Origin: an uncultured Nitrososphaerota archaeon
GTDB taxonomy: Archaea; Asgardarchaeota; Njordarchaeia; Njordarchaeales; Panguiarchaeaceae
DNA length: 64,000 nt
Reading direction: 5' to 3'
Assembly: GCA_964636085.1 (NCBI GenBank)
Contig: CAZWPQ010000002.1
Coordinates: 9,481-73,480, forward strand
In this document: positions 25,601-63,037 of the stretch, one piece after another
Layout: each line of letters starts with the position of its first letter
Numbering within the stretch: the stretch's first letter is position 1
Notes under the pieces: model-generated
What the model was told of the DNA's origin: nothing
Seen by the model: the letters and a program-made list of their open reading frames with translations, nothing else
Database searches by the model: none
Position numbers and translations under genes: made by a program

Positions 25601-28600
25601 AAAAACAAATAATGATACAATACAGGTACATGTATGGAACAATATCCCGCCAATACTTCTAGTTGATGACGACAAGGGTGATTCTTATGAGACATATTAT
25701 GAGCAAGCACTCCAAGACCTTGGGTATCAGAGAGATATTGATTACATCTATTGGGATGTATCGGTGAATGGTACACCCACAAAGTATTTACTTGATAGAG
25801 TCGTAATAGTCATATGGTTTACTGGTGATGATTTCACCACTACACTTACAACAGAGGAAAGGGATGTGTTAGAATATTATCTATCTAGGTGTGGGCAATT
25901 ATTCATATCTGGCCAAGATATAGGTTTTGATATTGGGGATACAACTTGGTATAGTACATGGCTAAAAGCTAATTATGAACGTGATGATACGAATATTGAT
26001 TATGTTAGGGGTGTCTCGGGGACTCTATTTGGTGGAGCCATATACAACCTATCTGGCACAGATAGTGCGAACAATAATGACTTTCCTGACGAAATATCTC
26101 CAACTGGTGGCTCAACACAAATACTCTATTATGATGATGACACAGGTATTGGGGCTGGAGTCATGTATGACGATGAGTACCGTCTTGTCTATATGTCCTT
26201 CCCATTCGAGGCTATTGATGGTTCAGTAAATAGATCCGACGCTATGCAGAGGGCCACGGACTGGATGAAGGCACCAATAGCTAAGATCTATGACTATAGT
26301 TTCTACATCGATAAATATACCGAGAATGTATCTCTCGCTATTGCGGCTAGGGCATACCATTATATTCGGAATCTCGAGATACTTATTAATGGAACGGTGG
26401 TGTATTCGTTATCTCCGGGAAGGAGGACTTACATCAATAATATAACCATTGATACTAGCTCGTTTCCCTCTGGGACACTAAATATTACGCTGAGGATTGT
26501 AGATAATAACCTTGACGAGGTAACAGATACTATATTCATAAGTAGGGAACATTTATATCTTGATTTGGTGTTCCCAAATACGTACGATCCTGTATGGTCC
26601 ACAACTAGGATCCTCGTTAATGCATCAACATACTCTGGTGTTAATCTGACAACACTAAATGTTACTATTAGCAATGAGACATGGAGCCAGATCATAGACA
26701 TTTTATCTAATTATGACTCACAAACGGGGTATTACTATTATGACTGGGATACTACGGGCGTCGCCGACGGATCCTATAATATATCTGTGTCAGCGATTAC
26801 TGATGAGGGATCTTCAAAGACGGATAATGTTTATAACATTGGCGTATGGAATGGGATAGTGCCTATATTGCTTGTGGATGATGATAACTGGCATGACTAT
26901 GAGCAGTATTTCATGGAGGCCCTCGAAAATCTGAGCTATCATTTCAACAGGGATTATGCATATTGGAATACCACTAGGAGGGGTGCTCCGCCACAAGATT
27001 TCCTCGACAGGGTTCAGATAATGATATGGGAATGTGGTCTTTCCGCACCTAATAGTGCTGAGAGAAATGCAATATCGGAGTTTCTATCGGATCTTGGCCA
27101 ACTATTTATAAGTGGACAAGACATAGGATACCTAATTGGAGATACTGATTGGTATAAAGATTGGCTAAGAGCTATATATGAGAGGGACGACACCAACATA
27201 AATAATGTGAGTGGGGTTGCTGGTACGATATTTGAGGGAGTAACATATCTACTCTCTGGATCAGATAGCGCCAATAATAATTTCTGGCCAGACGAGATAA
27301 GCCCAACAAATGGATCATTCCTAATGATGTACTATGGAAGGGATCCAAGCATAGGCGCAGCAATTGGTTATGATGGGTATTATCGTCTGGTCTATTTTGC
27401 ATATCCATTCGAATCAATAAATGGTAGTGAATACAGGGCCGATGCCCTTGATAGGATCCTCCAGTGGCTTAGGAAACCCATCGGTGCGATAGTTAGTCCA
27501 GAAAACATGACCATAACCAATAACGACACGATAGATATAATTGTTCATGCAAAGGCAATTACTGGGCTTGACATTATAAGGATATATGTCAATGGCTCCT
27601 TAGTAGTATTTGATGATATAGATGGAGTTGAACTAATTAAGCATTATGATATTGATGTCTCCGGATATCCGGACTATACAACACTCAACATAACTCTTGT
27701 AACGAATAGTGTTACTGGAGACATGGACACATTCATGATCTATATTATTAGGGACAAGGTGCCGCCGTATGCTGAGTTTCTATCGCCTGCTAATGGCTCC
27801 TATTTCAATGTGACGGATATAACATTTGAGTGGAATGGTACTGACAACTTTGGAATGAATCATTATGAGATTAGAATCGATGGCGGTGCATGGATAGATG
27901 TCGATCTACAAAACGAATATACATTCGCTGGCCTAGATGAGGGTATCCATACGGTCGACTTAAAGGCTATAGATCTCGCAGGAAACCAATTCACAACATC
28001 CTTAACTGTCATTGTTGACCTAACACCACCAGTCCTAATAGATATATTCCCCGAGAATGATAGCTATGTCCAATCAAAGGTTGTTATTTCATGGAACTTT
28101 AGTGACAACTATGAGCTGGATTGCTATAAGATTAGACTGGATGGTGGCGCATGGATTATGACAACATCCACAAGCCATGTATATGAATATCTTACAGAGG
28201 GAGAGCACAGTGTCTACATTAGGGCCTATGATAAGGCAGGTAATGTTAAACTAATTACTTTGAGGATAATTGCCGATACAACGGATCCATATATTGAAAT
28301 AACATACCCTCCTGGGGGAACATTCCTAAACACTAGTACGGTATATGTAGAGTGGTATATGAGTGACAACTTTGAGCTTGATCATTGTGAAATAAGGGTG
28401 GATGGTGGAGAATGGATTGATGTGGGTCTGGCATCAAACTATACAATATCTGGCATGTCTGAGGGCACACATATAATAGATGTGAGAGTCTATGATTCAG
28501 CAGGGAACTACGGGGAGGATACAGTAGTGATTTCGATAGATCTAACACCCCCAATTATTGTTGCCGTATATCCAGACTATGAGTTCTACATAAATACTAC

Positions 28601-36268: not shown

Positions 36269-36688
36269 GTGGAGATAAATCTCTTGCCGCTGGTTGGATG
36301 TGAAAAACTAGAGGAACTATGGTTAAGTGGTAATCAGCCTAGGAGAGCTGTTCTTGCACCAATTAAGAGCCTTAAGCTATTAGCTCTAGACAGGAATCGC
36401 TTGACAAAAATAGATCTTTCTCCATTGTCTGGATGCAAAAAACTGGAAAAATTATTCCTATCACATAATCAACTTGAGCATATTGATCTATCTCCGCTTT
36501 CAAGCCTTAAAAACCTTAAAAGTCTGACACTACAACATAACAATTTAAAGAAGATAGATCTATCTCCTGTCGCCCATATTAGGGGACTCGTAATTGAGGC
36601 TGATTGTCATGCTAAGCTCTATGGTGCGAATGTAGAGCTTGTAATGAGAAATATATTTTTTAGATTTTGTAAATATAGGGTAATCTAA
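36269..36688 (+). CDS. Short leucine-rich-repeat protein (about 5 LRRs), possibly a gene fragment
   Basis: The repeats are LEELWLSGNQ..., LKLLALDRNRLTKIDLSPLSGCKKLEKLFLSHNQLEHIDLSPLSSLKNLKSLTLQHNNLKKIDLSP. It has a GTG start 9 nt after an in-frame stop and no flanking domains. Confidence 0.7.
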   Translation: MEINLLPLVGCEKLEELWLSGNQPRRAVLAPIKSLKLLALDRNRLTKIDLSPLSGCKKLEKLFLSHNQLEHIDLSPLSSLKNLKSLTLQHNNLKKIDLSPVAHIRGLVIEADCHAKLYGANVELVMRNIFFRFCKYRVI

Positions 36689-36778: not shown

Positions 36779-39700
36779 TTGACTACGAAAGCCTTAATTC
36801 TTGGGGCTTTTCGTAGTCAAGAAGATTCGATGGTGAAGAGTTTGAGAAAGTATAATCAATATTTGTGTTCTCTAATAATTGTCGCTATGTTGGCTACGTA
36901 TGGTGTATATGGTAGTGTGATGAGGATCGCGAATGATGCAAATAGTAGGACTACTACTGCTCATGGGTCGAGTGCCAATAACATGGGTATAATGGAGCAT
37001 AAGCTTGTGATCGGTTATGATGCTACCTTCAGAAACTGTATAATAAATGGGACAGTGGAGATTAGAAACGGATCGAGAGTAATGTTCGAAAATGTAACAT
37101 TCTATGCCGAATCCCTATACTATTGGGTTGAGGGGAGAGAAAAGGGCTTTATAGAGGTCTATGACACTGCGGAGGTAATGATCAAAAATTCAAGGATTAT
37201 AGCTACTTCGTGGTCCCCGCGAATATATGTCTATAATACATCAGGAATCACAATCGATAACGTGAGTATATACTCAACAATGGGAGGGATCAATATATAT
37301 GCATATGGGGACTCAAGTGTAAATATCTATGATTGTAATGCCAGCACAACATTATACATATTCCTTCGTGACTATGCAGCGGCGATTGTGATTAACTCCT
37401 CAATATGGCAGATACTCGCATACGATAATTCGGGCGTATACCTATACGAGAGCATTAATAACACATATATAGAAACACATGATTCCTCATTACTTTATGT
37501 ATTCGGAGCAAAAATGGGGTATGGCGACTATATAAGTGCGGGGGATAATAGCCATGTAGAAATTATAAACACTGTTTTTTCAAGCGGAGGAATAGCCTGT
37601 GATGGACATGCAAGCGTTCAAGCTACACAATCAGTATTGGACTATATAGTTGCGGAGGACGCGGCTAATGTCTCGCTTGTAAATACAAACGTATCAAATC
37701 TCTGGGCATACGATCACGCAGACCTGCATATCAGTGGTGGATACTTTAATTGGATAGATCTATATCATGTTCCTATGGCCGGAGAAGAAGCAATGCTGGG
37801 TCCAGGAGGGGAAATTAAAGATGCGACCATCACAACGCTACATACATCCTCTGCAAGGATAATAAGACTTATTAACTGTTATGTCTCATCGCTTTATTAT
37901 CTCGACATATTTAATGGCTCTTATGCATATGTATACGTTGGTGGCTATATATACGATAGTGCATACCCGAATTATGAGGCGTTAGGATCAACAATAGTCA
38001 ATACTTATCATATATCAGGCGTGGCCGTTGGAAATAATGTAGACCTATTTGTGATCCATAGACCCATGAATCAAATCGTGGCTTTCAATGTAGACAGGCT
38101 TGAAATATACAATATTACTGACACTGGTAGCGTTATTGCGTTATACACGAACTGCTATATATATAATATAAGTGTTTATGATGTAGAATTTGCCTTTTAC
38201 GGGAGCAATGTAACAATAAATAACCTAACATATAAGACTTCTGGCTTTTATTTCTCGTTTCTGGCCAGGGATTCAAACATAACCATATACGACTCCAACA
38301 TAGAGTACATGGATATTAGTATCTATGATTCGAAGGTATCGTTTAGGTCAGTTTTGATAAACAACTCCTATTTATTGATCGAAAACTCTAGTGGGACACT
38401 GGACTGCATAATGGATTCCACGATTCCTGATCTCTCAGATAGTGATATAGTTTTCAACAACTCGGTTATTTCTTCGACACTACATATTTATAGGTCTAAG
38501 GTAGGTCTAATAAACACGACGCTATATGATGTGATAATAGATGAGGTTCGCCTTGCCGACGGCGTTTTCAACATGACTGATGGAGTTATAATTTCCTACA
38601 CCGTGGATATAATAAGTGGTCTATATGAAATAGAACCCTCCAATATTTATAGTGGATATATTTCTATTGACTACTTCGTACTTGATAATGCTTCTCTAGA
38701 GATAGATACCTATACGATCAATGTAATAATGGGGGGATATGTGGATATAGATCTCTATAATTCCTCTAAGTTGTATCTAATAAATGTATCTGCCGTTTAT
38801 CCAAGAGAGGTATGCATCAATGTGTATAATGACTCTGCAATATATCTCTTCGATTCGGATGTCTACACTATATATGCTGAGGGGGATGTCTATATTGAGA
38901 ACACAGGCGTGAACCAAATTGATATTCATAACTCGGACATAGAAATTTTCCACTCCCAAATCTCTGAATTGGAGATGGATAGCTCACGCCTCGTTGCGAA
39001 CTATACCAACTTTTCAGAAATAGAGATAATGTCAGGAGAGGTTATGCTTGATTCATGTTATGTTGATGATATGGGTGGTGGCGACTTGTTTGCATTCATG
39101 TTAAATGGAACGATCTGTGATGCCAACATAACCATATTAAACTCAAATGTCTCTGGATATCATGCACTCCTAGGAGGCAATCTAACGATTAAAAACTCGA
39201 ATGTTTCCGAGATATTTGCAGCATATCAATGGGTGGATATATATGACTCAAATATAGGATTCGCCCTAAATGTAAGCCTATTTACATCGGGATCCGCAAC
39301 CATAAGCAACAACGTGATCACGTCAGGGACATATATGGTTCTACTCCATAAGTATGGTACAACAGTCATAGGAAGCATGGGTTATGCTATTTCAATACTG
39401 CAAGATCCAGATGAACCACTTGTGGATTTAAGTATAGAAAATACTTTTGCTTACCCAGTAGTGGTTGCGCTGGGAGGGAGATTAGATATCGACAACTCGA
39501 TGTTTATGATTGTATTTGTAAATACAGATACAGATTTTAGAGCCACAAATTCCATCATTAATGCCTCAGAAATGGAGGAAGTCCCAGTAATTTTGGTGGC
39601 GAGTACACTCTACATGGATAATGTAACAATAATCTCAGAGATGCTTATACTTGCGGCATCGAATGATGCACAAATCCTCAACTCGGGATTTAATGTTGAT

Positions 39701-40957
39701 GGTATATACATATATAATACAACAATAACAATCACAAATACCGACGTAACGCCCTTTGCAGATCCAGATGGAACAGTCATTGCGAATTCCTACGTCTCTG
39801 TGGAGTATTCGACAATACTTGCAGCAACGTTATATGAATCCACACTTCATCTAAACGTAGTGAATGTCATTGACGCCAATGTAGAGGGTATTGTATTGTC
39901 CGAGGGATCCGTGCTGGATGGGGATAGTGTGAATGCATCAAATATACTAGCAGCCTACATGTTCAAGTATTACTTCATGATATTTACGATGGTCTCCACA
40001 TACGATATCCCGGTAAGAAATATAGATGTTCATCTCGTAAACTCTAGGATAATGGAGGGATACATCAAATATTATGTGGTTGATAATCCACTCGGCGCTG
40101 AATTTGATAACGAAACAATAATGGGTTCATATAGTACTTTAACAAACTACTCAAACTCATACACGACAGGCGCGGTACCATATTTCGTTTTCAGAATCTC
40201 TGGGAGTGGACATGCCAACATAACTAATTACAGGGGAGGAAATATAATACACTCCATAATGATCATGGCTACCCGGGACATTTCGCCGCCAGAAATAGCT
40301 GCACTTAATGCCAGTACGATAGAATATGAGTATGGGCTAGAGAGGAAGTTGTGCTATGTGCTGAATGACGAGACGCCAACGAATTATAAGGTCTCTATCA
40401 ATGATACAATCATCGAAACCGGCATATATACAAGTGGATATACGCTATGTGTGGACCTTGCCACATACATAACTTCTCCTGGTTATTATGTCGTTAAAGT
40501 ATATGCCTATGATAGTGACCTAAATAGTGTATATACAACAACTTATGTTCGTGTACATCCCGCAGAGGCACCACTTATAACACTGGAGCCTAAGGATAAT
40601 TACACGATTAATGTAGGTGAAGGAATAATACTTAACTGGTCGGCGACAGATCTTTCCCCCGATTTATATCAAATTATTGTCAATGGATCAAAGGTGGAGG
40701 AAAAATCTTGGGCGTCTGGCGAGGTAATATCGTATGAATATCAGGCAGAAGATGTTGGGAAGGTCAATATAACCATAGTATTCCAAGACCAGCTAGGGCT
40801 AAAGTCTACAGATACTGTAATTCTAAATGTCACCAAGGCAACAACCACAAAGAAACCTATAACTTATATTGCCATAGGTGCCATAGCTTTTCTTGCTTTG
40901 GTAGTCGCCATAATATTACTAAAGAGGAAAGGAAAACCTATGAAGGAGGAGGAATAG
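36779..40957 (+). CDS. Giant surface protein: signal peptide, about 1150 aa of degenerate short repeats consistent with a parallel beta-helix, Ig-like modules, and a C-terminal TM anchor. The likely start is ATG 36830.
   Basis: Short units rich in N/S/T/I/Y/V recur with a period of roughly 20-25 aa (…VNIYDCNAS…, …ITIYDSNIEYMDISIYDSKVSF…, …IYLFDSDVYTIYAEGDVYIENTGVNQIDIHNSDIEIFHSQISELEMDSSRL…). There are many N-x-S/T sequons. The C-terminus is ITYIAIGAIAFLALVVAIILLKRKGK. Confidence 0.85.
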   Translation: MTTKALILGAFRSQEDSMVKSLRKYNQYLCSLIIVAMLATYGVYGSVMRIANDANSRTTTAHGSSANNMGIMEHKLVIGYDATFRNCIINGTVEIRNGSRVMFENVTFYAESLYYWVEGREKGFIEVYDTAEVMIKNSRIIATSWSPRIYVYNTSGITIDNVSIYSTMGGINIYAYGDSSVNIYDCNASTTLYIFLRDYAAAIVINSSIWQILAYDNSGVYLYESINNTYIETHDSSLLYVFGAKMGYGDYISAGDNSHVEIINTVFSSGGIACDGHASVQATQSVLDYIVAEDAANVSLVNTNVSNLWAYDHADLHISGGYFNWIDLYHVPMAGEEAMLGPGGEIKDATITTLHTSSARIIRLINCYVSSLYYLDIFNGSYAYVYVGGYIYDSAYPNYEALGSTIVNTYHISGVAVGNNVDLFVIHRPMNQIVAFNVDRLEIYNITDTGSVIALYTNCYIYNISVYDVEFAFYGSNVTINNLTYKTSGFYFSFLARDSNITIYDSNIEYMDISIYDSKVSFRSVLINNSYLLIENSSGTLDCIMDSTIPDLSDSDIVFNNSVISSTLHIYRSKVGLINTTLYDVIIDEVRLADGVFNMTDGVIISYTVDIISGLYEIEPSNIYSGYISIDYFVLDNASLEIDTYTINVIMGGYVDIDLYNSSKLYLINVSAVYPREVCINVYNDSAIYLFDSDVYTIYAEGDVYIENTGVNQIDIHNSDIEIFHSQISELEMDSSRLVANYTNFSEIEIMSGEVMLDSCYVDDMGGGDLFAFMLNGTICDANITILNSNVSGYHALLGGNLTIKNSNVSEIFAAYQWVDIYDSNIGFALNVSLFTSGSATISNNVITSGTYMVLLHKYGTTVIGSMGYAISILQDPDEPLVDLSIENTFAYPVVVALGGRLDIDNSMFMIVFVNTDTDFRATNSIINASEMEEVPVILVASTLYMDNVTIISEMLILAASNDAQILNSGFNVDGIYIYNTTITITNTDVTPFADPDGTVIANSYVSVEYSTILAATLYESTLHLNVVNVIDANVEGIVLSEGSVLDGDSVNASNILAAYMFKYYFMIFTMVSTYDIPVRNIDVHLVNSRIMEGYIKYYVVDNPLGAEFDNETIMGSYSTLTNYSNSYTTGAVPYFVFRISGSGHANITNYRGGNIIHSIMIMATRDISPPEIAALNASTIEYEYGLERKLCYVLNDETPTNYKVSINDTIIETGIYTSGYTLCVDLATYITSPGYYVVKVYAYDSDLNSVYTTTYVRVHPAEAPLITLEPKDNYTINVGEGIILNWSATDLSPDLYQIIVNGSKVEEKSWASGEVISYEYQAEDVGKVNITIVFQDQLGLKSTDTVILNVTKATTTKKPITYIAIGAIAFLALVVAIILLKRKGKPMKEEE
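36781..36818 (+). other. Hairpin (13-bp stem with one bulge) immediately upstream of the probable start of the 1392-aa gene
   Basis: GACTACGAAAGCC-(11 nt)-GGCT(T)TTCGTAGTC. It ends 12 nt before ATG 36830, from which a signal-like peptide (MVKSLRKYNQYLCSLIIVAMLATYGVYG) begins. Confidence 0.5.
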
Positions 40958-40970
40958 ACATATAAATATT

Positions 40971-40980
40971 CCTTTTTTAT
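40971..40980 (+). terminator. Oligo-T tract after the stop codon
   Basis: CCTTTTTTAT lies 14 nt after the TAG at 40955-40957. Confidence 0.4.
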
Positions 40981-41169
40981 TCAAATTCTTGTCTCTAATA
41001 TCACTAAATAACCCAATATTTTCTAATGAATTCTAATTATCTGTGGATAAACTAATTATATCTTAGAGCGTGTATGTAAAGGAGTCAATATATCTTTTTT
41101 TTTAAAAGAATATCATTATATATACATGCTAAATCTATCAAAATATGTATGCGTCTTAAGGGGAGCTAG

Positions 41170-42492
41170 ATGCGTGGGAGTCGAAAGTATTTTCTCATTC
41201 TCTTATTCGGCATTATATTAGTCTCGATAACATATGTTGAGGCCGCTAACGGCTATCCTGACTGGATAAAAAAAGGCACCTATGCCAAGTACTCAGGCAC
41301 TATATATGGTGGTGGTGAAGTAGAGGAAGAAGTAGAATTTATAAGTGACGTCTATGGCAGTAAGGTATTGGTTAAATACTACGTGAAAGAGGTTCTTGGT
41401 GGCATGACATGGTCAAATACCTCAATACTAGAGGTAGATGTCAATACGCGAGAAACAAATGTTACGATATTTGATCCATTTAGCGGTACAAATAAAACAG
41501 TATACTTCAACTTGTGGATAGAGCTGGATGTCGATGTAGGAGATTATGTCAATATCTCTATATGGACACTGAAGGTATCGTCTATTGGGGATAGGATAAA
41601 AGTTAAGGCATATTCATATAAAAGACAGACAATAAGGGTTTATGGTTCAGTTTATACATATTCTGGGTATAGTGTATATTGGGAACTATACTATGACAAA
41701 GACACGCATCTCCTCCTATACATTCATACTTGGTTCGAGTATGGCTCACAATCTGTTGATACTCTTGAAGTAGAACTTGTGGACACAAATGTACCTCTTC
41801 CTCCCCTTCAAATTAGTCAAACCGAATTGTCATGGTCAGCTATTAGCATGACGCTTGGTATAATTAGTGTTGCAGTAGTTATATATATGGGCACATTAAT
41901 TGGGGCTGTGGGATACGGAGCTATACCTGCTTATGGGGCGGGTTGTCCTAGGGAAGGTATGGAGGGAGGAGGCCCTGCGGTATCTGTGGATCCAGAGAGG
42001 GCCAGTAGGTTATCTGGTCTGAAAAAATTTGGTGATGACATTCTCGACAAATTATTTAGATTCGCAGCGAAAAAGGCAATAGAGCGAGGGTCAGAAGTCA
42101 GAGAGCCTGATTCAAAGAAAGTTACAGCATTTTTAGTTGTCTTGGCTGCGGTTATCGGAGGGCTACTTGGTGTATACTTTGGTTTTAAAGAAATCCGTAG
42201 TTTTATCTCACTCATAATGCCCTCCATAGGAGTAACACTTGGCATGCTTGGTTTTATTGTCATGATCCTACTATTTCTAGGATGCGCCCTTGGAGTATTT
42301 AGGTTCTGGAAACTCTACGTGCCAATACTATTGCTAATACTCACAGTACTGGAACTGATAGGCCTATTCTTCTCAACAATGACCCTTGTAAATATGTTGG
42401 GTATAATAGCTGTGGCAATCATCCTGCCACTGTATACTGTTGCCTTTCTTGCGGGGATAATGCTATTCTCAACAGTAATTCCCACACTATAA
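41170..42492 (+). CDS. Hypothetical membrane protein: signal peptide, an ectodomain of about 200 aa, a TM helix, a charged cytoplasmic linker and a C-terminal 4-TM bundle
   Basis: The N-terminal MRGSRKYFLILLFGIILVSITYVEA is signal-like. The TM is WSAISMTLGIISVAVVIYMGTLIGAV. The linker is ...SRLSGLKKFGDDILDKLFRFAAKKAIERGSEVRE. Four hydrophobic helices follow to the C-terminus. Confidence 0.8.
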   Translation: MRGSRKYFLILLFGIILVSITYVEAANGYPDWIKKGTYAKYSGTIYGGGEVEEEVEFISDVYGSKVLVKYYVKEVLGGMTWSNTSILEVDVNTRETNVTIFDPFSGTNKTVYFNLWIELDVDVGDYVNISIWTLKVSSIGDRIKVKAYSYKRQTIRVYGSVYTYSGYSVYWELYYDKDTHLLLYIHTWFEYGSQSVDTLEVELVDTNVPLPPLQISQTELSWSAISMTLGIISVAVVIYMGTLIGAVGYGAIPAYGAGCPREGMEGGGPAVSVDPERASRLSGLKKFGDDILDKLFRFAAKKAIERGSEVREPDSKKVTAFLVVLAAVIGGLLGVYFGFKEIRSFISLIMPSIGVTLGMLGFIVMILLFLGCALGVFRFWKLYVPILLLILTVLELIGLFFSTMTLVNMLGIIAVAIILPLYTVAFLAGIMLFSTVIPTL

Positions 42493-42496
42493 CCAA

Positions 42497-42509
42497 TTTT
42501 TCTTTTTTT
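42497..42509 (+). terminator. Oligo-T tract after the stop codon
   Basis: TTTTTCTTTTTTT begins 5 nt after the TAA at 42490-42492. Confidence 0.4.
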
Positions 42510-43099
42510 AACCTAATCCCTAGTATTCCTTATATTACCACTAAGAGAAGTTTATGTAGTGGGTTTGGGGTTCTTCTATTTGAGAAGAGATTCTTGGGTT
42601 GGCTTGTGTTATTTCAATTGTCGCTACGGCCTGTAGAAATTCTTCTGGTCTAAGTATTCTTACATATTTTGTACGTACTCTGAGTAGCTTTTCTTTGTAT
42701 CTTTTCATGATATATAACATATAAGTTGCAATAAATTACGAAGACATTCAATCTTAGGATTCTGTATGAGCTAGAACAATAGACGATTCTGTAGCCCTAC
42801 TCATAAATACGGCAATAAGAATCCATGATGTGCTCTTAGAAGTGCCGAAAACATACAGACGGATACATATGGTCCGTGTAAAACAATAAATTGATATTAC
42901 ATAAATTTCTAGGATCGTCGATGCTAAATAATTCGCGAAAAGTTTTACTGTATTAACACCAACATAGCTCGTCTATATATTCAATTTTTTCCTTTATATA
43001 TTCTTTTTGTATCTTAATCAAAACGCCCAATTAGAAATCGATCGCATAATGTCGGTTTCTAATTGGGTCCTAAACATAAAAACTGTGTGGGTGTAACTA

Positions 43100-46000
43100 T
43101 TGGTAAGGGGGAAGCTGGCCTGTCTATTATTAATATTGGCGATTTTGACGCCCAGACTAGTCGTTTTTAACGATTTTGATGGGGTTTCTAGTGTTGAGTC
43201 TAAAGGAACAGAGGACGATTTTGTTGACATATGTTTGTTCTACAGCGAGTATAATTCTCTACTTGGGAGATCATCCGAGAGACTGTACTTCAATATAAGG
43301 TACATATATCCACATGTTGACTTGTGTGGTGTGCGTAGTATTTATGATATAACGCTGAAAGCCGATGATTACGACATACTTATCTTGATGTTCAATACTA
43401 CACGGGACTCCGTTATCGTAGGTAATACACCACTATCATGGGGCGAATTTGTGGATTTTCTACGCATGTATCCTGATAAGGAAATCATACTCTTACTGGG
43501 CAACTCCTACATGCTGAATGAGACAAGCGATAATTGGCATTTTGAAAGCGTAGAATATGATAGTATCTATGCATATGAGACCTATGGCGTCTGGAAGGTT
43601 GCCAAGATATTCGAATCCCTAGGCCCAGAATATAAATGGTACGCATTAAAGTTGAAGGAGAGCGCGCTCAGCTATTACTTCGATAACATAGACAGAATAT
43701 TCGAATCAAAAATTACGCCATCACAAGTAATTGGAAGCAGGGATGAGGAGTATAGAAAGGCAAAAATAGAGGAATACCTAAGAGAACATCCCTCCTCCCT
43801 TAGGGTCAGGGTAGCCGATGAGAAAAACCCCAATGGCCCAATAATATACATTAGAAATTTTGCTAAGAATTCAGATGGATATGACTACTTACCATTCCCC
43901 AAGATGTCCGGGATTGCAAGTTCTATCGGGGATTTCATTGACGAGGTGCTGGGCTTCTTATCTGGCAATGGTTGTGATTTTCTAACAATAAATTTCTCGG
44001 TGATAGATCAAATCGTAGATGCATTTAAATCCGTATATGATTTTATTGGCGACCCCGCAAAAATGGGGGAGGGATCGCTGCTCAAGGGGTTCCTAGGCTC
44101 GCTGATGCAAGAGTTTCCATACATTGAGAACTATACAAAATACTTGGATCTTTTTATGGACGGCTTCTATGCCCTCAAGGGCGACATAAGTTCCATACTG
44201 GACTTCCTAATGGGGGCCATCGATCTAGTCTTTCCTTCGGGAACGGGAGTGGATGAGTATATAGAGCAATTAAAATCCATAGCGGGGGAGATATTATCCA
44301 TAACTGACCAAGTAATGAATCTTTACCAGAGAATCACCAGCAACAAAATTAGCATGGTTCTCCAGTATATAATGGGGAAAATCACCAATATTACGATCCA
44401 AGAATTCCTAAAAAACATGACTGGAATAACAGATTTTGACTCGCTATATAACAGATTGAGCTCACTGTTCTCCATTGGCATGCAGATATTTACACTCCAA
44501 AACATAACAGATTTCGCCTCAAAATTGTTCAAATTTATAACGGAGGACTTGAATATCTTTGATTATCCCGACATTGGCGACATAGCAGGAAAAATAAAGT
44601 CTATAATATCCCTAGCATTATCGTTTCTAGAGAAAGAAAAATCATCTCTATCGCAACTACTGAGGGACGCCATAACCTCATTCATAGGCGAGTCATATAT
44701 ATCGGACATAGAGAAAATGGTTGATGATATACTGGATGAAGTTGATGATGCCATAAAAGAGGCAGAATCTGATATAGAGGGCTTTAGGTCACGCATAGAG
44801 GACATCATAAACACTTATGTCTCTAATTTCCCCGATCTGGAAGAGGTAAGAGAGATACTAAGAGAAGTAATAACACTGATAACTGCGATCTCAAACCCCG
44901 GATTTGATATCTCAGAGGCTACTAGCCTCATAGAAATATTTGAGGATATACTAGAGACCTATCTTTCTGGATATGAGGATGATATCAATCGTTTATTCTT
45001 AATATTGAACTCCACTGTAATCCCAATAGGGCTTCTAAATGCTCCATCAAGACTACAGAAGGCATTTCTAAAACAATTAAACCCATTATTGGACATGCGG
45101 CAAAATGTCCTAAGATACCTAATAGAAACGGTAAAGAGAATAATAATGGATACGGAGGAGTACGTTCAGATAGAAGATGTGCTGAAGTACATAGAGAATG
45201 GAACAACAATAATCAGCGCAATACTTAACATAATCTCGGAGGTTAGGGAGAGACCATTCGATGGGATAACGTCGGCCCTAATGTTTGCTGCGTCCATCAC
45301 ACAGACCCAGTTATTTGGCAATATGACTATAGGAAATCTGACGACATTTCTAATGGCATTATTACCGGATCTAATGGGGCTAGATAGGGTACCATCTTTG
45401 GAGGAATGTAAGAATATGATAATCAATGCTCTAAGTGGATTTAGTTCTCAAATAAAAACCACGGTTATTACGCTATTCGAGTTCCTGTATGACATTAGAG
45501 AGGTTATGAGGAATGGAGTAAAATGGTTTACAACAAAGATACTCGATTGGGTGGCTGGATATGTAGCGGACTTTGTTTCAGATCTTGTTGGGGAGATAGA
45601 GGATATAATAGACCAGTATACGTTTCTTAATCTAGAGGGAGATATGAATTTTGGTTTTGCTGGGCTTGATGCTATTACATTTTCATACAAGATAGTTATA
45701 AGCGCTGGGGTCGACATTGATGAGTCTGGACTAACTAATGATATTAAGGACATGATATTGAGGGGTAAGTATTTAGACTTCTTGAACCCGATAAAGGTTT
45801 TCGAAACGTTGATAGGCCATGTAACAATAACGCCCATAATAGAGGCACAGATAAAGATGTCATCGATGGCTACGAATACAGATCTTCTAGGCGAAATTAT
45901 AGGTCTTCTAGGAGCGGATATAAGTATAGAAGGAGAGGCCAGATTTAAACTGGTATTGTTCTCATTCAAATCTGGTACCTTCGATATGAGCGAATTCCTA

Positions 46001-55100: not shown

Positions 55101-56858
55101 TCTCCAAATATCGAGGGAAGTGTTTTCACATTTGATATAAATTCTGATGGCCTAGACGAGCTAATAGCATGCAACTATACCAACGGCATGTATGATTTAA
55201 TGGTAATCGATATACTGAATGGCTCCATTCTAAGTATTCTAGAGACAAAGTCAAGGTTCCAATATAGGTGGTATAGTATCGTGAATATCGATGGCGACGA
55301 GTTCCCGGACATATTCGCATATACAGAGATGGGCGAAATTGTGATCTCCACTAAAAACTTCGACGTTATATGGATGGATGAGTTCAGGTACTACAAAGAG
55401 TTCTATGAATTTGTTGACTATGATGGAGATGGAAGAACAGAAATATTGTACTCGTTTAATGGAGGCACAATACTATCCAATTCCTATGGATGCCCCATAC
55501 TATACTATGGAATCCCCAACAACAGGACATTCATGACGCTGGGCGACATCGATATCGACGGAGAAATCGAATTAGTTGGGTATCTCGAAAACGGAGTATT
55601 TGTCGTTGTAAACATAACACAGTTCAATGAATCATTAACCGGAGTCGCATACTTAGAACCAAAGATTGTTGGTGAGAAACAGATTGTTGATGAGATGGAT
55701 TACGGCCTGATGGCTATAGCCGACATAAACAAGGATGATAACGATGATATCATTATATCAAACACAACCAATCTAATCGTGTATGACTTCTATATGGGTG
55801 ACTATGTATTTAAGACAGATCTAAGGATGCAGATACGTGAGATCCTTACAGGCGACATGCTTGGCTACGGGTATAACTCCACAATCGTTGTATATGGGGA
55901 CTACGACGTCACTATCTTCGACAATACGGGGCAAATAATAGTGGATATGCGTGTTGTTAGTGGTAAAAACTATATAGTGAGGGCGTTTATAGGAAATTTC
56001 ATGGGATCCGCGAAGGATGAGGTCATCGTAGTAACAACACTAGGTACATACTGTATTGATGAGTCGGGCATATACTATCTATTAACAATAGGCTCAAATA
56101 CATATCCAATTGTTGGGGACTTTAATGGGAATGGCTACCTAGACATAGCATATAAGATGTTGGGAACATCGACCCTATATGTGTATGAGGGAGACGGAAC
56201 ATTTATGTGGAGCAAAACACTGAGCACTAGTTCTGGAAATATGTTTGCATGCGATGTATTCACTCTAGATATAAACAAGGACGGCATAGATGATATAATA
56301 TTCACAGACTTCAATGGTACTATAGCAATATATGATGGCTCCTCTGGAACAGCCATCTATAAGATACCCACAGGTATACACTCGTACGCCCTATCGGTGG
56401 ATATCGACAGAATGTTTGGTACTGGTGGCCTAGTAGTCAAATATCTAAACTATGGTCTCTATGTATTTAAGCTAGATGGATCAATGGTCTATCACTTCCC
56501 CGATATGTCAACCTCAGGATATATTCCGGCTTATGTATCTGGAATAGGATACACCTACTTCGCTATGACCCCAGGGAAAATATTTGGAGTAAACCGCTAC
56601 GACAGATACATCTATAAATCTCTTAGCTACGAAACTGTAGCATTCAACCGAATGGTAATGGCCAATGAAATATATATAGTATCCCTCGCAAAAACTGGCT
56701 ACGTAACAATCATAAACATAGCCGATCTCTCATCCAATCCCATAAGACCTAGCACTCTCTCCAATGGTCACAGCGATAATTGGAATGGAGCAACCCTACT
56801 ATTGATAACGGCAATTCCACCAATTGCCGTGGCTATATACGTGAAGAAGAAAGAATAA
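49152..56858 (+). CDS. Giant surface protein: signal/anchor helix, at least 20 FG-GAP/VCBS-type repeats (integrin-alpha-like propellers), an embedded BNR (sialidase-like) propeller region and a C-terminal TM anchor
   Basis: FG-GAP-like units include GDINGNGLPDMLVGLRNGELVLFE, IGDLDGDGIDEVSII, ADVDGNGYKDIVLAFGGKLYMLW, YGDVDSDGKGEVIVGDFDNNVYIFE, VGDANGNGWDEIIIATDYGNVYSYE and VGDFNGNGYLDIAY. The BNR motifs are YSDDGGKTW (about 53270) and SMNGGQTWSKP (about 53965). The gene overlaps the upstream gene by 26 nt. An alternative GTG start at 49170 follows GGAGGTGAGG. The C-terminus is LLLITAIPPIAVAIYVKKKE. Confidence 0.92.
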   Translation: MREVRRVHRRKILALLVIIGMIAPIFVVLNTNQSTYDVGENKGFETSSSQHMDFNDLFSEKSISYSWSGNYYPENWSFIKYLKDNPNEYRKVWEPWLTKAAIHSIVTNDNGTMIAFGGGYLYDNEIHIYRWNYVTQNYEKVWDSGDGIISGDVVSLDFADTDNNRLMEVVAGSADGHIYVFEQRHVFDPITNTEHMFDLVWKSEFLGPVWRVMVYDMDLDYDPDIVAGTWNNKIYMFEYEDHSGYPYSTSHWISYKMVWESPELSDKILSFVCGDINGNGLPDMLVGLRNGELVLFENNGTIIQAPDYYLPLPQDNSYKIIWSYNYGSYAPILDMSIGDLDGDGIDEVSIIESGREAYVLDYSETYDRFDLIKLYYPPKSFELDPPHPIDYYIDWMISGINVYYNNSTAYIAEPSEEIDIYDNNTAMGGPPDGKYSEFLPNATHNATAVLDFGMQEEAAGDGTYYFDICMVLMYKQGYDLVPNRTSMRIYVSKYGYKYVEVKDYFVYDFGSVAYLFFDIDGILKNNSWKHIRYLKIVVPYGYKFAIDAIITYDIDKQLSDVTSTYITELDLDYYGEKNYLLFGTVNGRLVIFQYNDTIHRYEMVYDSLSEDMFSLENNIWDIVKVMPDKRFPYWTKYWEKGIDLGTKKMIDFEYFDIDHDDNYDLLIGTDKGTVLLYRYQWGTFINDSYATSKIFGDINGVSKSNLTLRMCDILNNKPNKPGIELILGYYKDVQYNLRIFYLYNPAVLTYSFEYTYDVAEHEITGKLYSLFHYSGVRSPVTFDVADVDGNGYKDIVLAFGGKLYMLWYLYGDASGPVFMLDEKYFEDIPNLLKNKKPFKPQLVDFNNDGVYDLVISYLNKNGTTYFENIGTVDEPIWVQKRTLFANSLRSLNPVTNFAFNGYTLSEIEKIGDTYWLIANKRGTSTFILFNGETDRIQTLALATYPLLTVINMAPVVPKASENFGYHIFEVWSNHRDLHGWTQAVDYGDVDSDGKGEVIVGDFDNNVYIFEHMINNTYKRAFRSGDLYYEIVTNTSPYYSEELVGLQGTFKRRIWEHARYLVANTDIDGDAKLEAIVATKYQIFVFEHERYENYILEYRYSFLEHPLGSEILEQTNGISAFAYAGDMDYNGYGEIIVALDNYLFVLEMTEDGFIETFSSLVSIFADKIIDYAATHKYYLLDPVFVLPGNPYTYYYDLMGQGVNDYSEFEIRAIIIVDLDNNGNKEIIIGGLNRSLECPSLRDGFLYAIENEFGTYYIRWSAPDNVLYENAINALDVDDQDYDGKKELYVAGDKGVDVFEASDTSYLEYITTISGDPNHPFVNNMALYNNSPLAYDDEKFDDADIVVTPQGRIFVIYQSEYTITATKTTEIFYSYSDDGGKTWYGPYILAPTTDYSGTPLFEKFPRALYHNGSIYIAWYASIDVSGIVQYNICYRTLDPQTLVKGPIEYPVKSMSDVISDLSIWRFPVKFWYVSYDMGISYINYTDRCIYPMFRLLGSWYPLVSKKIEYIYDGNWTLFFRHDIAYIGAYRWLIAFTMYIPDQYGRRLIWTSITDTSFSSWTMPVTIYDSYELQEYPNVEYIESENVTVVSGMRYTVSHYWEPFLCVSMNGGQTWSKPKYLYRYHPRVKIVCSNGVPRYQFLTRTYEDLGMHRTYALRVSARNGYFVYSMPAMITYNPLGTIGTVYDIIVGVRDSYEWLRFDVSKVDVLAVGDTDGDWRREVIVNMDDYVVVVEISDNNESYRRYTQKAILGPFNRTIQDIVVGDANGNGWDEIIIATDYGNVYSYEFLYSTWLGSDFRVPNEEFSKKYLISASLISFYGLGNIDNDPQPEYYFTTMYGLYVYDHIWENFSHMLFYPAKINYTVAFNPLGEDKIDFILALNNGTVYRIDGETFSVVAEKDIATDGFVDIILTNTTVFLANKSGFVIELTLDSLSEVFTYNLDAVNTTGIGIGYYLGGISRIFIQLDNDTLYCIDYQSASLAWTIHVSPNIEGSVFTFDINSDGLDELIACNYTNGMYDLMVIDILNGSILSILETKSRFQYRWYSIVNIDGDEFPDIFAYTEMGEIVISTKNFDVIWMDEFRYYKEFYEFVDYDGDGRTEILYSFNGGTILSNSYGCPILYYGIPNNRTFMTLGDIDIDGEIELVGYLENGVFVVVNITQFNESLTGVAYLEPKIVGEKQIVDEMDYGLMAIADINKDDNDDIIISNTTNLIVYDFYMGDYVFKTDLRMQIREILTGDMLGYGYNSTIVVYGDYDVTIFDNTGQIIVDMRVVSGKNYIVRAFIGNFMGSAKDEVIVVTTLGTYCIDESGIYYLLTIGSNTYPIVGDFNGNGYLDIAYKMLGTSTLYVYEGDGTFMWSKTLSTSSGNMFACDVFTLDINKDGIDDIIFTDFNGTIAIYDGSSGTAIYKIPTGIHSYALSVDIDRMFGTGGLVVKYLNYGLYVFKLDGSMVYHFPDMSTSGYIPAYVSGIGYTYFAMTPGKIFGVNRYDRYIYKSLSYETVAFNRMVMANEIYIVSLAKTGYVTIINIADLSSNPIRPSTLSNGHSDNWNGATLLLITAIPPIAVAIYVKKKE

Positions 56859-56866
56859 TCTTCTTC

Positions 56867-56872
56867 TTTTTT
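56867..56872 (+). terminator. Oligo-T tract after the stop codon
   Basis: TCTTCTTCTTTTTT directly follows the TAA at 56856-56858. Confidence 0.4.
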
Positions 56873-57078: not shown

Positions 57079-58242
57079 TTACCATACCTTAAGGATCCAT
57101 GTAGTTTGGTGTACAGCAATTTCGAATTTTCCTTGGTACGAATTACATTCTCCTATTATTATGACATGATTATTGATCGTGTTTAGTGCTGTCTGAGTAT
57201 TTTCATCCAGTTCTTCCCACACAGAGATATCTATCCATACAGTAACGGTCTGGTTGGGACTTATTGATTCATCTAATACATATATCTTATTATGGTAGCT
57301 TGAATCAACCCCCACTATGGTAACATTAATCATAACGATACGACCCTGCTCGACAAAATCGCTCATATTGCTCAGTATAGTACTGAGGTTCATCACTGAT
57401 AGTTTCTCTAGGATACTAATACAGTCGCCACTCCAAGGAACAATTTCTGGTGACCCCCTATATTCCCATAGGTTTCCAACTATCTCTACTTTATCTCCAA
57501 CAAACGCATCTGGCATTTCCCCTAGCCATCTCATGACGATTTCGGGAACGTATACGCTCAGTTCAAAGTCTAAGTATGAATAATCCTTGATACTCCCAGT
57601 TATAAATGTTGTATAATTTATCCACTCAACTATCCATCCACTCACCCTTACGGCTTCTCCCTTCAATTTTTCCCAGTTATACGATATAAACTCTAGGGTA
57701 TAACTTTCTGGTGTATCTCTTTTTATGGTTAGATCATCGGGCTCATTTATTATTAGAGAGATAGAATCTCCGACTCTTAGCGTTCCAGTGACCTCAATTT
57801 TGTCTCCAGAGACAGGTACTTTTTCTTGCTCTATCAAATCCCTACTAGTAGGAGTGTAGGCATAAACCGTAATTGTTTGAGTCTCAAATTTCTCGTTATA
57901 TGTCCAATCCTCATCAACGATACTAAAATATAGTCTCTCTTGAACATCATCATAAGTCGCCGATGTATATGCATATCCTATTATTTTGACCCTCGCATAA
58001 TCCATCTCGGATGTTATGTCCCTTATATATACAACTGGCGTCTCCGTATGCTTGGAGGTATAATATAGGGCGAAAATACTCGCGCTAGCTATGATAAGCG
58101 AAATAATAAGCAGTATACGTATTTTTAGTCCATATCTATTTCTAGCACCATAGTAAGGGTATATATCATAGGTACCTACATATCTGACGCAACTGGGGCG
58201 ATATGTCCCCTCTTTTATCCTCCCTATTTCGCTATATTGCAT
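57079..58242 (-). CDS. Type-II membrane protein with three OB-fold-like modules in the ectodomain (tentative)
   Basis: A cytoplasmic N-terminus of about 40 aa is followed by the TM LKIRILLIISLIIASASIFALYY. Strand-rich modules then recur, built around ARVKIIGYA.../GDKIEVTGTLRV, GEAVRVSGWIVEW.../GDKVEIVGNLWEYRGSPEIVP, and VMINVTIVGV.../VIIIGECNSYQGKFEI. Confidence 0.7.
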   Translation of the reverse strand: MQYSEIGRIKEGTYRPSCVRYVGTYDIYPYYGARNRYGLKIRILLIISLIIASASIFALYYTSKHTETPVVYIRDITSEMDYARVKIIGYAYTSATYDDVQERLYFSIVDEDWTYNEKFETQTITVYAYTPTSRDLIEQEKVPVSGDKIEVTGTLRVGDSISLIINEPDDLTIKRDTPESYTLEFISYNWEKLKGEAVRVSGWIVEWINYTTFITGSIKDYSYLDFELSVYVPEIVMRWLGEMPDAFVGDKVEIVGNLWEYRGSPEIVPWSGDCISILEKLSVMNLSTILSNMSDFVEQGRIVMINVTIVGVDSSYHNKIYVLDESISPNQTVTVWIDISVWEELDENTQTALNTINNHVIIIGECNSYQGKFEIAVHQTTWILKVW

Positions 58243-61621: not shown

Positions 61622-63037
61622 ATGTCTAGCCTAATGTGGGACATTCTCGGGAGAGTTAATAAGTGGTGGATTGATCCTAAGAGAATTGTTGAGGACGATC
61701 ACGTAAGTAGATTTATGAAGTCTACCGTTAGGTGGTGCCCAAATGTTTTTGGGGTCGATGACATTGCGGATGGGGTCTATACATTAAGGGGCCCAAGACA
61801 GGTTGGTAAGACGACGATGCTCAAGCTTTTCATCAAACAGTTGCTTGAGTCCGGATTCGACCCACATTCCATTGTATACGTTCCTTGTGATATTCTTGAG
61901 GATTATAGTGAATTACTTAGGCATCTGATTGATATTAGGCGAAGGGTGTCTGGAAGAATATTAATTATTCTTGATGAGGTAACATTCGTTAGGGAGTGGC
62001 AGAGAGCCGTAAAGGTATTTGTAGACCAAGGATTATTGAAGGACACGACGATAATAGCCTGCGGATCTCATGCAGTGGATGTAAAAGAGGGAGCCTCTTA
62101 CCTAGTTGGAAGAAGAGGTCATGCTAGGCATCCAATAGATAGAGAACTCCTAACGATGAAATTTAGGGACTATGTGGCAGTAACAAATCCAGAGCTTGTC
62201 AAGAAAATCAAAACTCTTGATGATGTAGTTTCGATGTCTTCATTGAAAAGAGAGGCCTTTATTGAGGAGATCTTCGAGATTTTCATGAAATACTTAGTGA
62301 CGGGAGGATTTCCAAGGGTTATAGACGAGTATAATAGGAGGGGAATGGTGAGTAGGGAGACATTCAGTGATTTTACGAATTATTTGTCGCGGGACATAGC
62401 AAAGCTTGGTAAATCCGAGAATACTGCGAGGGCGCTCATGGCATCAATAATAAAGCAGAGGTGCAACCCAACATCATGGAATTCGATAGCTAGGGAGATA
62501 GGAATATCCCAACCAGTAGCTCAAGAATATGGGGACTTTCTATCGAGAATGTACATAATCAGGCTAACATACCACCCAAATAGGACATTTACAGGAAGAG
62601 ATGAAAGAAAAGACAAGAAACTAATACTAAGGGATCCGTTCCTATATCATGTAGCCAGTGTTTGGATACGGGGATTCCCAGAAATCAGCATAAACCCACA
62701 GGAGACCCTCATCCAAAACCTAGATGCAGAACAACAACATATTGTCGAAATGATTGTGATAGAGCATATCGCTAGACACTATGTAACATACTACTGGAGG
62801 CGAGAAAAAGAGATAGACGCCATCATTATCAGGAATGGTAACGTCATGGGATTTGAGGTTAAATGGAAAGAAAGAATATCAAGGAGCGAAATCAGAGAAG
62901 CCATAAGAACATACAACAAGATACCGCTAAATCGAAGAAAACTGATAATAGTGACAAAAAATACTTTTGATGATAGAGGAAATGTAATGCTAGTCCCAGC
63001 ACCACTTCTCTTGATTATAGAGGATCTCTTCTCCTGA
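61622..63037 (+). CDS. AAA+ ATPase of the COG1373 type (AAA_14 plus a DUF4143-like nuclease-fold C-domain)
   Basis: Walker A is GPRQVGKTT and Walker B is IILDEV. The C-terminal EKEIDAIIIRNGNVMGFEVKWKE fits a (D/E)...ExK restriction-endonuclease-like motif. Confidence 0.9.
   Translation: MSSLMWDILGRVNKWWIDPKRIVEDDHVSRFMKSTVRWCPNVFGVDDIADGVYTLRGPRQVGKTTMLKLFIKQLLESGFDPHSIVYVPCDILEDYSELLRHLIDIRRRVSGRILIILDEVTFVREWQRAVKVFVDQGLLKDTTIIACGSHAVDVKEGASYLVGRRGHARHPIDRELLTMKFRDYVAVTNPELVKKIKTLDDVVSMSSLKREAFIEEIFEIFMKYLVTGGFPRVIDEYNRRGMVSRETFSDFTNYLSRDIAKLGKSENTARALMASIIKQRCNPTSWNSIAREIGISQPVAQEYGDFLSRMYIIRLTYHPNRTFTGRDERKDKKLILRDPFLYHVASVWIRGFPEISINPQETLIQNLDAEQQHIVEMIVIEHIARHYVTYYWRREKEIDAIIIRNGNVMGFEVKWKERISRSEIREAIRTYNKIPLNRRKLIIVTKNTFDDRGNVMLVPAPLLLIIEDLFS

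Follow-up and report, generated by a model that had tools for sequence, protein, structure and literature searches.

Do four consecutive genes on one strand of an archaeal contig encode a single surface system, or do only some of them belong together? We addressed this question in a 64,000-nucleotide stretch of contig CAZWPQ010000002.1 (assembly GCA_964636085.1), called the window below, from an uncultured archaeon of the Asgard class Njordarchaeia. A first-pass annotation, made from the letters of the window, had described a plus-strand run of four open reading frames (ORFs) and a convergent ORF, and its coordinates match exactly. The maximal ORFs are P1 (36779-40957), P2 (41170-42492), P3 (43100-49177) and P4 (49152-56858), and the convergent ORF lies after P4 at 57079-58242 on the minus strand. 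All four had been taken as parts of one envelope or adhesion system. Judged from gene order in relatives, the conserved module is P3-P4, the two genes that close the flagged run. We think it rather probable that the P3-P4 operon encodes a two-subunit, membrane-anchored, calcium-loaded glycoprotein complex of the Asgard surface, a conserved building block of the coat or surface.

Conservation of the P3-P4 pair

The first-pass annotation had named synteny across related genomes as a check on its proposal. For the last two genes the answer was uniform: a P3 orthologue lies directly upstream of the P4 orthologue at 54/54 assessable loci. Six of these loci belong to looked-up P4 homologues, 9 come from genomes and 39 from metagenomes. 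The looked-up set consists of two close metagenomic relatives, a Njord metagenome-assembled genome (MAG), Candidatus Lokiarchaeum ossiferum (CP104013, NEF87_004126), a closed Heimdall genome and an Odin MAG. Every one of the six has a same-strand gene of 2040-2205 aa with TSP3_bac repeats directly upstream of P4, while the remaining neighbours vary by locus.

When one genome per species was scanned with a P3 alignment, a full-length P3 match was obtained at 9 loci, all of them Asgard, and P4 was immediately downstream in each (9/9). A metagenome scan with an alignment of the P4 N-terminus gave 47 loci. P3 was directly upstream in 39/39 of those where the P4 start and upstream DNA were present. 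The classes with the pair include Njord-, Loki-, Thor-, Hod-, Heimdall- and Odinarchaeia, and the cultured Ca. L. ossiferum is among the loci. Both P3 and P4 find their best matches in metagenomes; among named sources, the closest is a Candidatus Njordarchaeia MAG (identity 52% with P3, 37% with P4).

At one Heimdallarchaeota locus (CP070695; L007:19459-29462), a 925-aa gene downstream of the pair, in which a PPC domain is faintly recognisable, has a 4-nt overlap with the P4 stop. Next comes a paralogous FG-GAP giant with C-type lectin and lamin-tail domains. These downstream genes may be a lineage-specific extension of the P3-P4 module.

The P3/P4 junction

The junction in the window reads ..AAATGAGGGAGGTGAGGAGAGTGCATAGGAG.. 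and carries the Shine-Dalgarno (SD) sequence GGAGGTGA within the last P3 codons. The P3 stop codon, TAG, occupies 49175-49177, and a GTG at 49170, in frame with P4, overlaps P3 by 8 nt (GTGCATAG). Because GGAGGTGA is 3' of the ATG at 49152, it cannot serve that codon. The same 8-nt-overlap geometry recurs in the closest orthologous loci, L002 (gggaggtgagaataATG..TAA), L003 and L004. P4 orthologues begin with MYRRKIV.. and MNRKKIL.., compared with (M)HRRKIL.. in the window. From the SD position, the geometry of the three loci and these N-termini, we put the most likely P4 start at GTG 49170, which gives an 8-nt overlap and a protein of 2562 aa. The 26-nt overlap of the first-pass annotation holds for the maximal ORF, whereas the real overlap is likely to be the shorter one.

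Among 51 junctions between separate genes, the P4 start is located -14..+14 nt from the P3 stop in 48. The commonest arrangements are an ATGA overlap (-4), a gap of +1 and an overlap of -8. The spacer is 3 nt in L. ossiferum and 6 nt at L095, which is a P3-P4 pair and not a fusion. An SD core (GGAGG, GGGAG, GAGGT or AGGAG) was present at -30..+12 of the P3 stop in 45/51 junctions, compared with 13% of random 45-nt windows. The conserved ..KGGA and ..EGG.. ends of P3 orthologues arise because the embedded SD is translated. Coupling of the last two genes had been proposed from the SD in the last P3 codons, and it is well supported by these 45 junctions, by the pairing at every assessable locus and by in-frame fusions.

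P3-P4 gene fusions

In two proteins, P0017 (4355 aa; 16 member sequences) and P0018 (4348 aa), a stretch that matches P3 aa 44-1958 with 38% identity runs on into a P4-like part. A single P3-P4 ORF of 4359 codons was found at L098, the same as L112 (L098:3455-16531), and in Thorarchaeota L013 (L013:9914-18247) the reading frame is open through the P3 and P4 parts. In-frame fusions of ~4350 aa, in the same gene order, occur in at least two lineages.

The sequence kept at the seam comprises the P3 transmembrane (TM) helix, a K/E-rich basic loop of ~50 residues and the P4 N-terminal hydrophobic segment. The P4 C-terminal anchor is lost. Such a seam would form a TM hairpin that leaves both ectodomains outside, and the fusions indicate that the P4 N-terminal segment is able to act as a membrane span. 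As gene-fusion evidence of the classical kind, they argue for a physical partnership of P3 and P4.

Surface-protein features of the giants

By hydropathy, all four products have an N-terminal hydrophobic segment, and P1, P3 and P4 close with a single C-terminal TM helix and, behind it, a tail rich in K/R. This agrees with the signal-like N-termini and anchored C-termini noted earlier. The three giants had also been called dense in N-x-S/T sequons, and they are enriched over composition-matched shuffles: 47 vs 17.6±3.7 in P1, 28 vs 13.4±3.4 in P3 and 40 vs 19.3±4.0 in P4, a two- to nearly three-fold excess. These features support the reading of P1, P3 and P4 as secreted, C-terminally anchored, sequon-rich archaeal surface proteins.

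Architecture of P3

P3 consists of a signal peptide, an N-terminal region of ~1100 aa, a TSP3 array, a putative Ig-like domain and a TM anchor, with a basic tail on the cytoplasmic side (Table 1). In BLASTP against the proteins upstream of P4 orthologues, orthology spans ~residue 40 to the C-terminus. Identity falls from 52-53% at Njord-like loci to 36% for L. ossiferum, 33% for Odin and 31% for Heimdall.

The TSP3 repeats reported in the first pass were readily recovered. P3 matches TSP3_bac (PF18884) with E=1.8e-40 and 136.8 bits (cut-off 25), and 22 strict motifs were counted. Their Asp/Glu positions are invariant in a 7-sequence alignment (7 orthologues, 5 classes), so that repeat number and order are fixed. 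The conserved block between the array and the membrane appears to be Ig-like.

The N-terminal ~1100 aa are, as far as sequence comparison can tell, a novel region. No consistent Pfam family was found among 13 orthologues, and a profile search of the PDB gave only weak matches, to designed helical bundles. A low-confidence AlphaFold2 (AF2) model of aa 1-1120 (three sequences; predicted local distance difference test score, pLDDT, 37.5), used for secondary structure only, predicts an alpha/beta unit at ~aa 44-136, an all-alpha part at ~150-840 with ~35 helices, and long beta-hairpins at ~840-1110. A word-index search with the N-terminal 1120 aa returned zero matches, even to itself. Since full-length orthologues exist, this is a false negative; we regard it as a word-filter artefact and do not take it as a sign of orphan status.

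At six divergent soil metagenome loci (L123, L124, L128, L129, L132 and L137), the P3 match starts only at query residue ~772-929. In these P3 proteins the helical N-terminal region may be missing or strongly diverged.

Architecture of P4

P4 begins with an N-terminal hydrophobic segment, continues with about six beta-propeller-type domains with FG-GAP calcium loops, and ends with a C-terminal TM helix and a KKKE tail. The FG-GAP repeats that had been noted in P4 are well supported by FG-GAP_3 (PF13517; E=6.9e-33, 113.5 bits, cut-off 26.9) and 18 calcium-loop motifs of the form Dx[DN]x[DN]GxxE. FG-GAP itself (PF01839) scores 28.6 bits, with a cut-off of 22.1. AF2 modelling of aa 30-1200 from a 41-sequence alignment gave a pLDDT of 81.2 and a predicted template-modelling score (pTM) of 0.74. 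The first propeller, aa ~60-360, is the best-conserved part of P4.

In a Foldseek search of the PDB, the best matches to aa 30-1200 were the triple-propeller proteins DDB1, SF3B130 and CPSF160 (E~1e-16, TM-score 0.15-0.22, identity 7-10%). Like the P4 model, these proteins have consecutive beta-propellers in one chain; unlike P4, they are cytosolic or nuclear, WD40-like and without calcium loops. A specific tie was rejected because the low TM-scores indicate a generic fold class only. A tie to the BBSome/KICSTOR propellers (BBS2, BBS7, PTHB1, ITFG2, kaptin) was rejected as well, since blade-level matches had been summed. These families score 35 and 33 bits over the whole protein with no single stretch passing, and the PDB kaptin match (E=0.0055) covers ~100 residues.

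The BNR propeller assigned to P4 in the first pass is a candidate. In P4 itself BNR_2 (PF13088) is weak (E=0.007, 16.2 bits, cut-off 31.4). It is above the cut-off in the paralogue P0015 (41.8 bits), and several P4 orthologues carry precomputed PF13088 matches.

The C-terminal TM helix with a cluster of 4-10 K/R residues at the extreme C-terminus is kept in most P4 orthologues, but not in the fused forms. Such ends, in P3 and P4 alike, resemble archaeosortase/PGF-CTERM-type signals. The NCBIfam CTERM sorting models gave no match at E<=0.01, no PGF motif was seen, and there was no exosortase-family gene among the scanned window ORFs.

P4 has 123 homologues, most of 2550-3150 aa. The named ones are nearly all Asgard (Njord, Thor, Loki, Heimdall, Hod, Kari and Odin). 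Public annotations of P4 orthologues are generic or misleading, and include BamB outer membrane assembly factor, PQQ-binding-like beta-propeller, sialidase family, VCBS repeat-containing and hypothetical protein.

Table 1. Coordinates of P1-P4, their domains and candidate signals in the window.
Feature	Position	Strand	Basis or remark
P3 gene, 2025 aa, upstream subunit of the pair	43100..49177	+	ORF; end-to-end alignment with genes preceding P4 orthologues
P3 N-terminal ectodomain, aa 25-1120	43172..46459	+	No known family; conserved across Asgard with invariant columns
P3 TSP3 calcium-binding repeat array, aa 1127-1851	46478..48652	+	22 strict DxDxDxxxDxxE motifs and a few degenerate ones
P3 putative Ig-like beta-sandwich domain, membrane-proximal, aa ~1880-1975	48737..49024	+	Conserved block; invariant G1943, Y1945, F1965
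P3 TM helix, aa 1982-2000, with K/R-rich tail on the cytoplasmic side (last residues ..NEGGEESA)	49043..49174	+	Hydropathy 2.85; layout common to all orthologues
Shine-Dalgarno GGAGGTGA	49157..49164	+	Within last P3 codons, 8 nt before GTG 49170
P4 gene, ~2562 aa, downstream subunit of the pair	49170..56858 (GTG start)	+	ORF; maximal ORF from ATG 49152 is 2568 aa
P4 N-terminal propeller block, ORF aa ~60-1200	49329..52751	+	AF2 model: near all-beta propeller chain with inserted beta-sandwich
P4 BNR/sialidase-like propeller candidate, ORF aa ~1311-1700	53082..54251	+	BNR_2 below cut-off
P4 C-terminal TM helix (ORF aa 2546-2564) and KKKE tail	56787..56855	+	Hydropathy
Candidate P3-P4 promoter, TATA-box-like TTTATATA	42993..43000	+	~100 nt before P3 start; sequence only, AT-rich surroundings
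Candidate terminator parting P2 from P3-P4, oligo-T tract	42497..42509	+	Directly after P2 stop; sequence only
Candidate terminator of the P3-P4 unit, oligo-T tract	56861..56872	+	Directly after P4 stop; sequence only
P1, ~1375 aa from M18	36830..40957	+	Repetitive N/S/I/Y-rich ectodomain, two Ig-like domains, TM anchor
P2, 440 aa, polytopic membrane protein	41170..42492	+	One central and ~four C-terminal TM segments

A proposed surface complex

In the reading that we prefer, P3 and P4 would be made from one transcript, with P4 translation coupled to that of P3 and the two proteins in roughly 1:1 amounts. Both ectodomains would be exported outside the single membrane and would assemble side by side into a heteromer of ~500 kDa before glycans. 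Calcium would stiffen the TSP3 'wire' and the propellers, with several dozen Ca2+ ions held, and N-glycans would cover the surface of the complex. It would be part of the non-crystalline coat or of the 'complex surface proteins', making contact with partner cells or substrate and/or supporting the envelope.

Cultured Loki and Heimdall Asgard cells lack the surface layer (S-layer) typical of archaea. Cryo-tomography showed on them an amorphous coat and complex surface proteins, made of components that the papers leave unnamed. The complex surface proteins bridge protrusions on the imaged cells. Ca. Y. umbracryptum, a Heimdall-class isolate, has an amorphous coat, and S-layer proteins were not detected in the P. 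syntrophicum proteome. Because the pair is conserved while its neighbours vary, the papers leave the composition of the coat on imaged cells unnamed and S-layer proteins went undetected in P. syntrophicum, a core coat or adhesion complex is the most likely role. Envelope support and adhesion are not separable from the sequence data; calcium-dependent adhesion by P3-P4 is plausible. A stronger version, which we regard as possible but doubtful, is that P3-P4 makes up the main conserved part of the Asgard coat and would account for the amorphous layer and the 'complex surface proteins' on Ca. L. ossiferum as well as for the amorphous coat of Ca. Y. umbracryptum.

Several points weigh against the proposed complex. 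In every organism P3 and P4 are known from genes alone, and their physical interaction is deduced from synteny, coupling and fusion only. Many of the 54 loci duplicate the same lineages, and the independent ones are estimated at ~40. The genome scan was keyed on generic TSP3 patterns (71/80 loci were unrelated bacterial or archaeal TSP3 proteins), and the absence from non-Asgard genomes is not rigorous. Half of P3, the N-terminal 1100 aa, gave no more than the low-confidence model described above and has no structural or functional assignment. Basic residues apart, the cytoplasmic tails of P3 and P4 show no conserved motif, and nothing in them suggests a link to the cytoskeleton. The text of the P. 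syntrophicum proteome paper, in the part available to us, makes no mention of P3/P4-like proteins.

If the stronger version is right, Asgard archaea would have their own calcium-dependent heteromeric machine for adhesion and the envelope, with a new fold of ~1100 residues. It would mediate the cell-cell contacts (protrusion bridging, partner attachment) that eukaryogenesis models invoke. Asgard archaea are the closest to eukaryotes, and their surfaces are invoked in models of the contact between the archaeal host and the future mitochondrion. P3-P4 provides a concrete candidate for the Asgard coat, with named genes in the cultured Ca. L. ossiferum (NEF87_004126 and the gene directly upstream of it). 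In the literature that we searched, no paper joins Asgard with FG-GAP and none discusses the P3-P4 genes. The clearest trace in print is the L. ossiferum orthogroup taken up below. In addition, Liu et al. 2021 are cited in passing for 'integrin repeat-containing ESPs' (eukaryotic signature proteins). What appears to be new here is the ~1100-aa region and the lineage-wide obligate pairing; the repeat modules and anchored multi-subunit surface complexes were already known.

Alternative explanations

Four other explanations have to be weighed. Chance adjacency of two independent surface proteins is the least probable of them. Large surface-protein genes do often cluster, and the P3-P4 interaction is read from genes; however, order and strand are kept at 54/54 loci across classes while every flanking gene differs, the SD-at-stop geometry is conserved, and in-frame fusions are independent. 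We also give very little credence to P3 and P4 as toxin-delivery proteins or as extracellular enzymes such as a sialidase-like glycosidase. In a supplementary table of the L. ossiferum paper, one orthogroup whose domains are FG-GAP, TSP3 and PQQ bears generic arCOG labels ('secreted multidomain / toxin delivery'; arCOG07561/arCOG10338), and a weak BNR_2 (sialidase-fold) signal is present in P4 and stronger in relatives. The FG-GAP/VCBS giants of these arCOGs, with which existing tables lump P3/P4, are likewise large secreted proteins with FG-GAP_3 and PQQ-like repeats. P3 and P4, in contrast, have no toxin domain and end in a TM helix and basic tail. They are strictly orthologous and collinear across classes, their C-termini are not polymorphic, and P4 always occurs with the P3 family. 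At no locus is P4 followed by a small immunity-like gene; what lies downstream differs each time. No catalytic family exceeds its threshold.

An integrin-like signalling receptor that links a ligand to the cytoskeleton, as forerunner or analogue of integrin alpha/beta, is unlikely, although the resemblance in layout is real. Both are pairs of single-pass, C-terminally anchored glycoproteins with short cytoplasmic tails and (for P3-P4, predicted) divalent-cation-dependent ectodomains, with FG-GAP calcium-binding blades in one subunit (P4, as in integrin alpha). An actin cytoskeleton under the Asgard membrane has been published, and the low-confidence secondary structure places an alpha/beta unit at the P3 N-terminus. 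Yet integrin alpha has one 7-bladed FG-GAP propeller plus thigh/calf domains, whereas P4 is a chain of ~six propellers over ~2500 aa with no thigh/calf, and FG-GAP repeats are so widespread in bacteria that they imply no specific relationship. P3 offers a ~1100-aa novel region and ~22 TSP3 repeats; Pfam at E<=1 found no VWA/beta-I, PSI, hybrid or EGF domain in P3 or 13 orthologues, and its N-terminal consensus has no DxSxS motif of a metal-ion-dependent adhesion site (MIDAS). The tails are poorly conserved save for basic residues, with no NPxY/GFFKR-type motif and with last codons constrained by the embedded SD. The P3/P4 genes are coupled or fused, and integrin tail motifs are lacking. The analogy is one of layout and not of membership. 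The original four-gene system with P2 as its membrane base is very improbable too. The four genes are contiguous on one strand, and the giants share the signal, TM and basic-tail layout and the sequon enrichment. This layout is also seen in an unrelated S8 protease giant of the window and is hence generic. P1 and P2 are missing from every relative's P3-P4 locus, the P1 family occurs without P2, P3 and P4, P2 matched only itself in a word-index search, and a 607-nt spacer with an oligo-T tract and a TATA-like box separates P2 from P3.

Comparison with known systems

With thrombospondin/COMP and the bacterial TSP3_bac proteins (Myxococcus CglD, MtsC, MtsD), P3 shares the DxDxDGxxDxxE repeats. 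These three bacterial proteins carry annotations for gliding motility and cell-cell cohesion. P3 scored 159.7 against NCBIfam CglD (NF033765), with a cut-off of 400, and covered only profile positions 75-241 of 1124, the TSP3 repeats. The scores for MtsD (40.1, cut-off 800) and MtsC (15.1, cut-off 350) were lower. Unlike thrombospondins, P3 has no C-terminal L-lectin domain. It also lacks a VWA domain; its repeats are fixed at no fewer than 22, it is TM-anchored, and it has an obligate propeller partner.

The SlaA/SlaB S-layer of Sulfolobales is also a two-gene envelope unit of large, heavily N-glycosylated proteins with at least one C-terminal TM anchor, and P3-P4 would share with it a possible place in the outermost layer. 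There is no sequence or fold similarity. P3 and P4 are both anchored, the Asgard coat is amorphous and not a lattice, and P3-P4 is known from its genes. P3-P4 thus falls outside the integrins, the CglD/Mts proteins, the polymorphic toxins and the S-layer pairs. P3 does belong to the TSP3_bac repeat proteins and P4 to the FG-GAP repeat proteins.

P1, P2 and the convergent gene

The likely start of P1 is M18 (36830); a gene caller placed it at 36887 instead. A phmmer search of 1.84 billion representatives returned a family of 39 proteins of 1300-1500 aa that align over their full length at 24-35% identity and end with Ig-like domains (Big_7, Big_9, PKD) ahead of the anchor. The three located P1-family genes adjoin PadR/HAAS, a HAD-hydrolase or a P1 paralogue, and never P2, P3 or P4. 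On one contig (L089:147-9625), two P1-family paralogues, one of 1372 aa (34% identity with P1) and one of 1328 aa (25%), are ~1.4 kb apart, from which it follows that P1-type proteins form small multigene arrays. The earlier description of P1 as beta-helix-like found no profile support. There was no Pfam match even at E<=5, the 1100-aa repetitive ectodomain had no PDB relative, and hhalign of the P1-family profile with the Beta_helix/NosD (PF13229) alignment gave a probability of 0.07%. P1 may still have a beta-solenoid fold.

P2 has no Pfam or NCBIfam family. The search in which it matched only itself covered 5.8 billion protein clusters with limited sensitivity, the same method having missed the P3 orthologues. 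The absence of a recognisable enzyme family, noted in the first pass, was upheld with Pfam and NCBIfam for P1, P2 and the P3 N-terminus. The convergent ORF had been called OB-like, a label that comes down to a sub-cut-off match (18.5 bits, E=0.0019, cut-off 27).

By tblastn, the P3-P4 loci of relatives contain no match to P1, P2 or the convergent gene; ~140 loci were fetched in all, and none of the three appears in them. In close relatives with >3.4 kb of upstream DNA, a glycosyltransferase or iron-containing alcohol dehydrogenase (Fe-ADH) gene precedes P3-P4 instead of P1/P2. With P1 and P2 missing there and the P1 family found elsewhere without them, the four-gene system and the part of P2 as its membrane base are not sustained. 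For P1 and P2 this is the kind of outcome that the first-pass annotation itself had named as counting against its proposal. P1, P2 and the convergent gene are best regarded as neighbours unrelated to the P3-P4 module.

The stops of P1, P2 and P4 are each followed by an oligo-T tract, and a TATA-like box lies ahead of P2 and of P3. In these AT-rich spacers, the tracts and boxes suggest three transcription units: P1, P2 and P3-P4. Scans for sigma-70 promoters and hairpin terminators gave the same counts as shuffles and are uninformative for an archaeon. A 59-aa ORF on the minus strand (42541-42720) lies inside the P2-P3 spacer, and is called as a gene on the ENA contig. At the equivalent position (L004:2162-2398, minus strand), the Njord locus carries a 78-aa MazE/AbrB-like gene. 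The idea that the 59-aa ORF is a conserved regulator by analogy was dropped, as it matched no family.

Other features of the window

G+C is flat across the window, at ~0.38-0.41, and Rfam and tRNA scans found no element in it. The flagged genes are surrounded by housekeeping genes, leucine-rich-repeat (LRR) proteins and one further anchored giant. The latter is a subtilase S8 protein of 2464 aa (22623-30017, plus strand) with six Big_7 and other Ig-like domains, located 13 kb upstream of P3 and unrelated to the flagged genes. It has a signal, a C-terminal TM helix and a basic tail, and 56 sequons compared with 22.3±4.2 in shuffles. Since it shares this layout with the flagged giants, the layout is taken as generic for surface proteins of the source organism.

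Two LRR proteins are encoded, of 548 aa at 6807-8453 (minus strand) and of 139 aa at 36269-36688 (plus strand); the gene for the latter adjoins P1 on its upstream side. To our knowledge, LRR proteins in archaea are unusual outside Asgard. Two paralogous ATPases with AAA_14 and DUF4143 domains are located at 11113-12417 (minus strand), ~24 kb upstream of the flagged genes, and at 61622-63037 (plus strand), 5 kb downstream of them.

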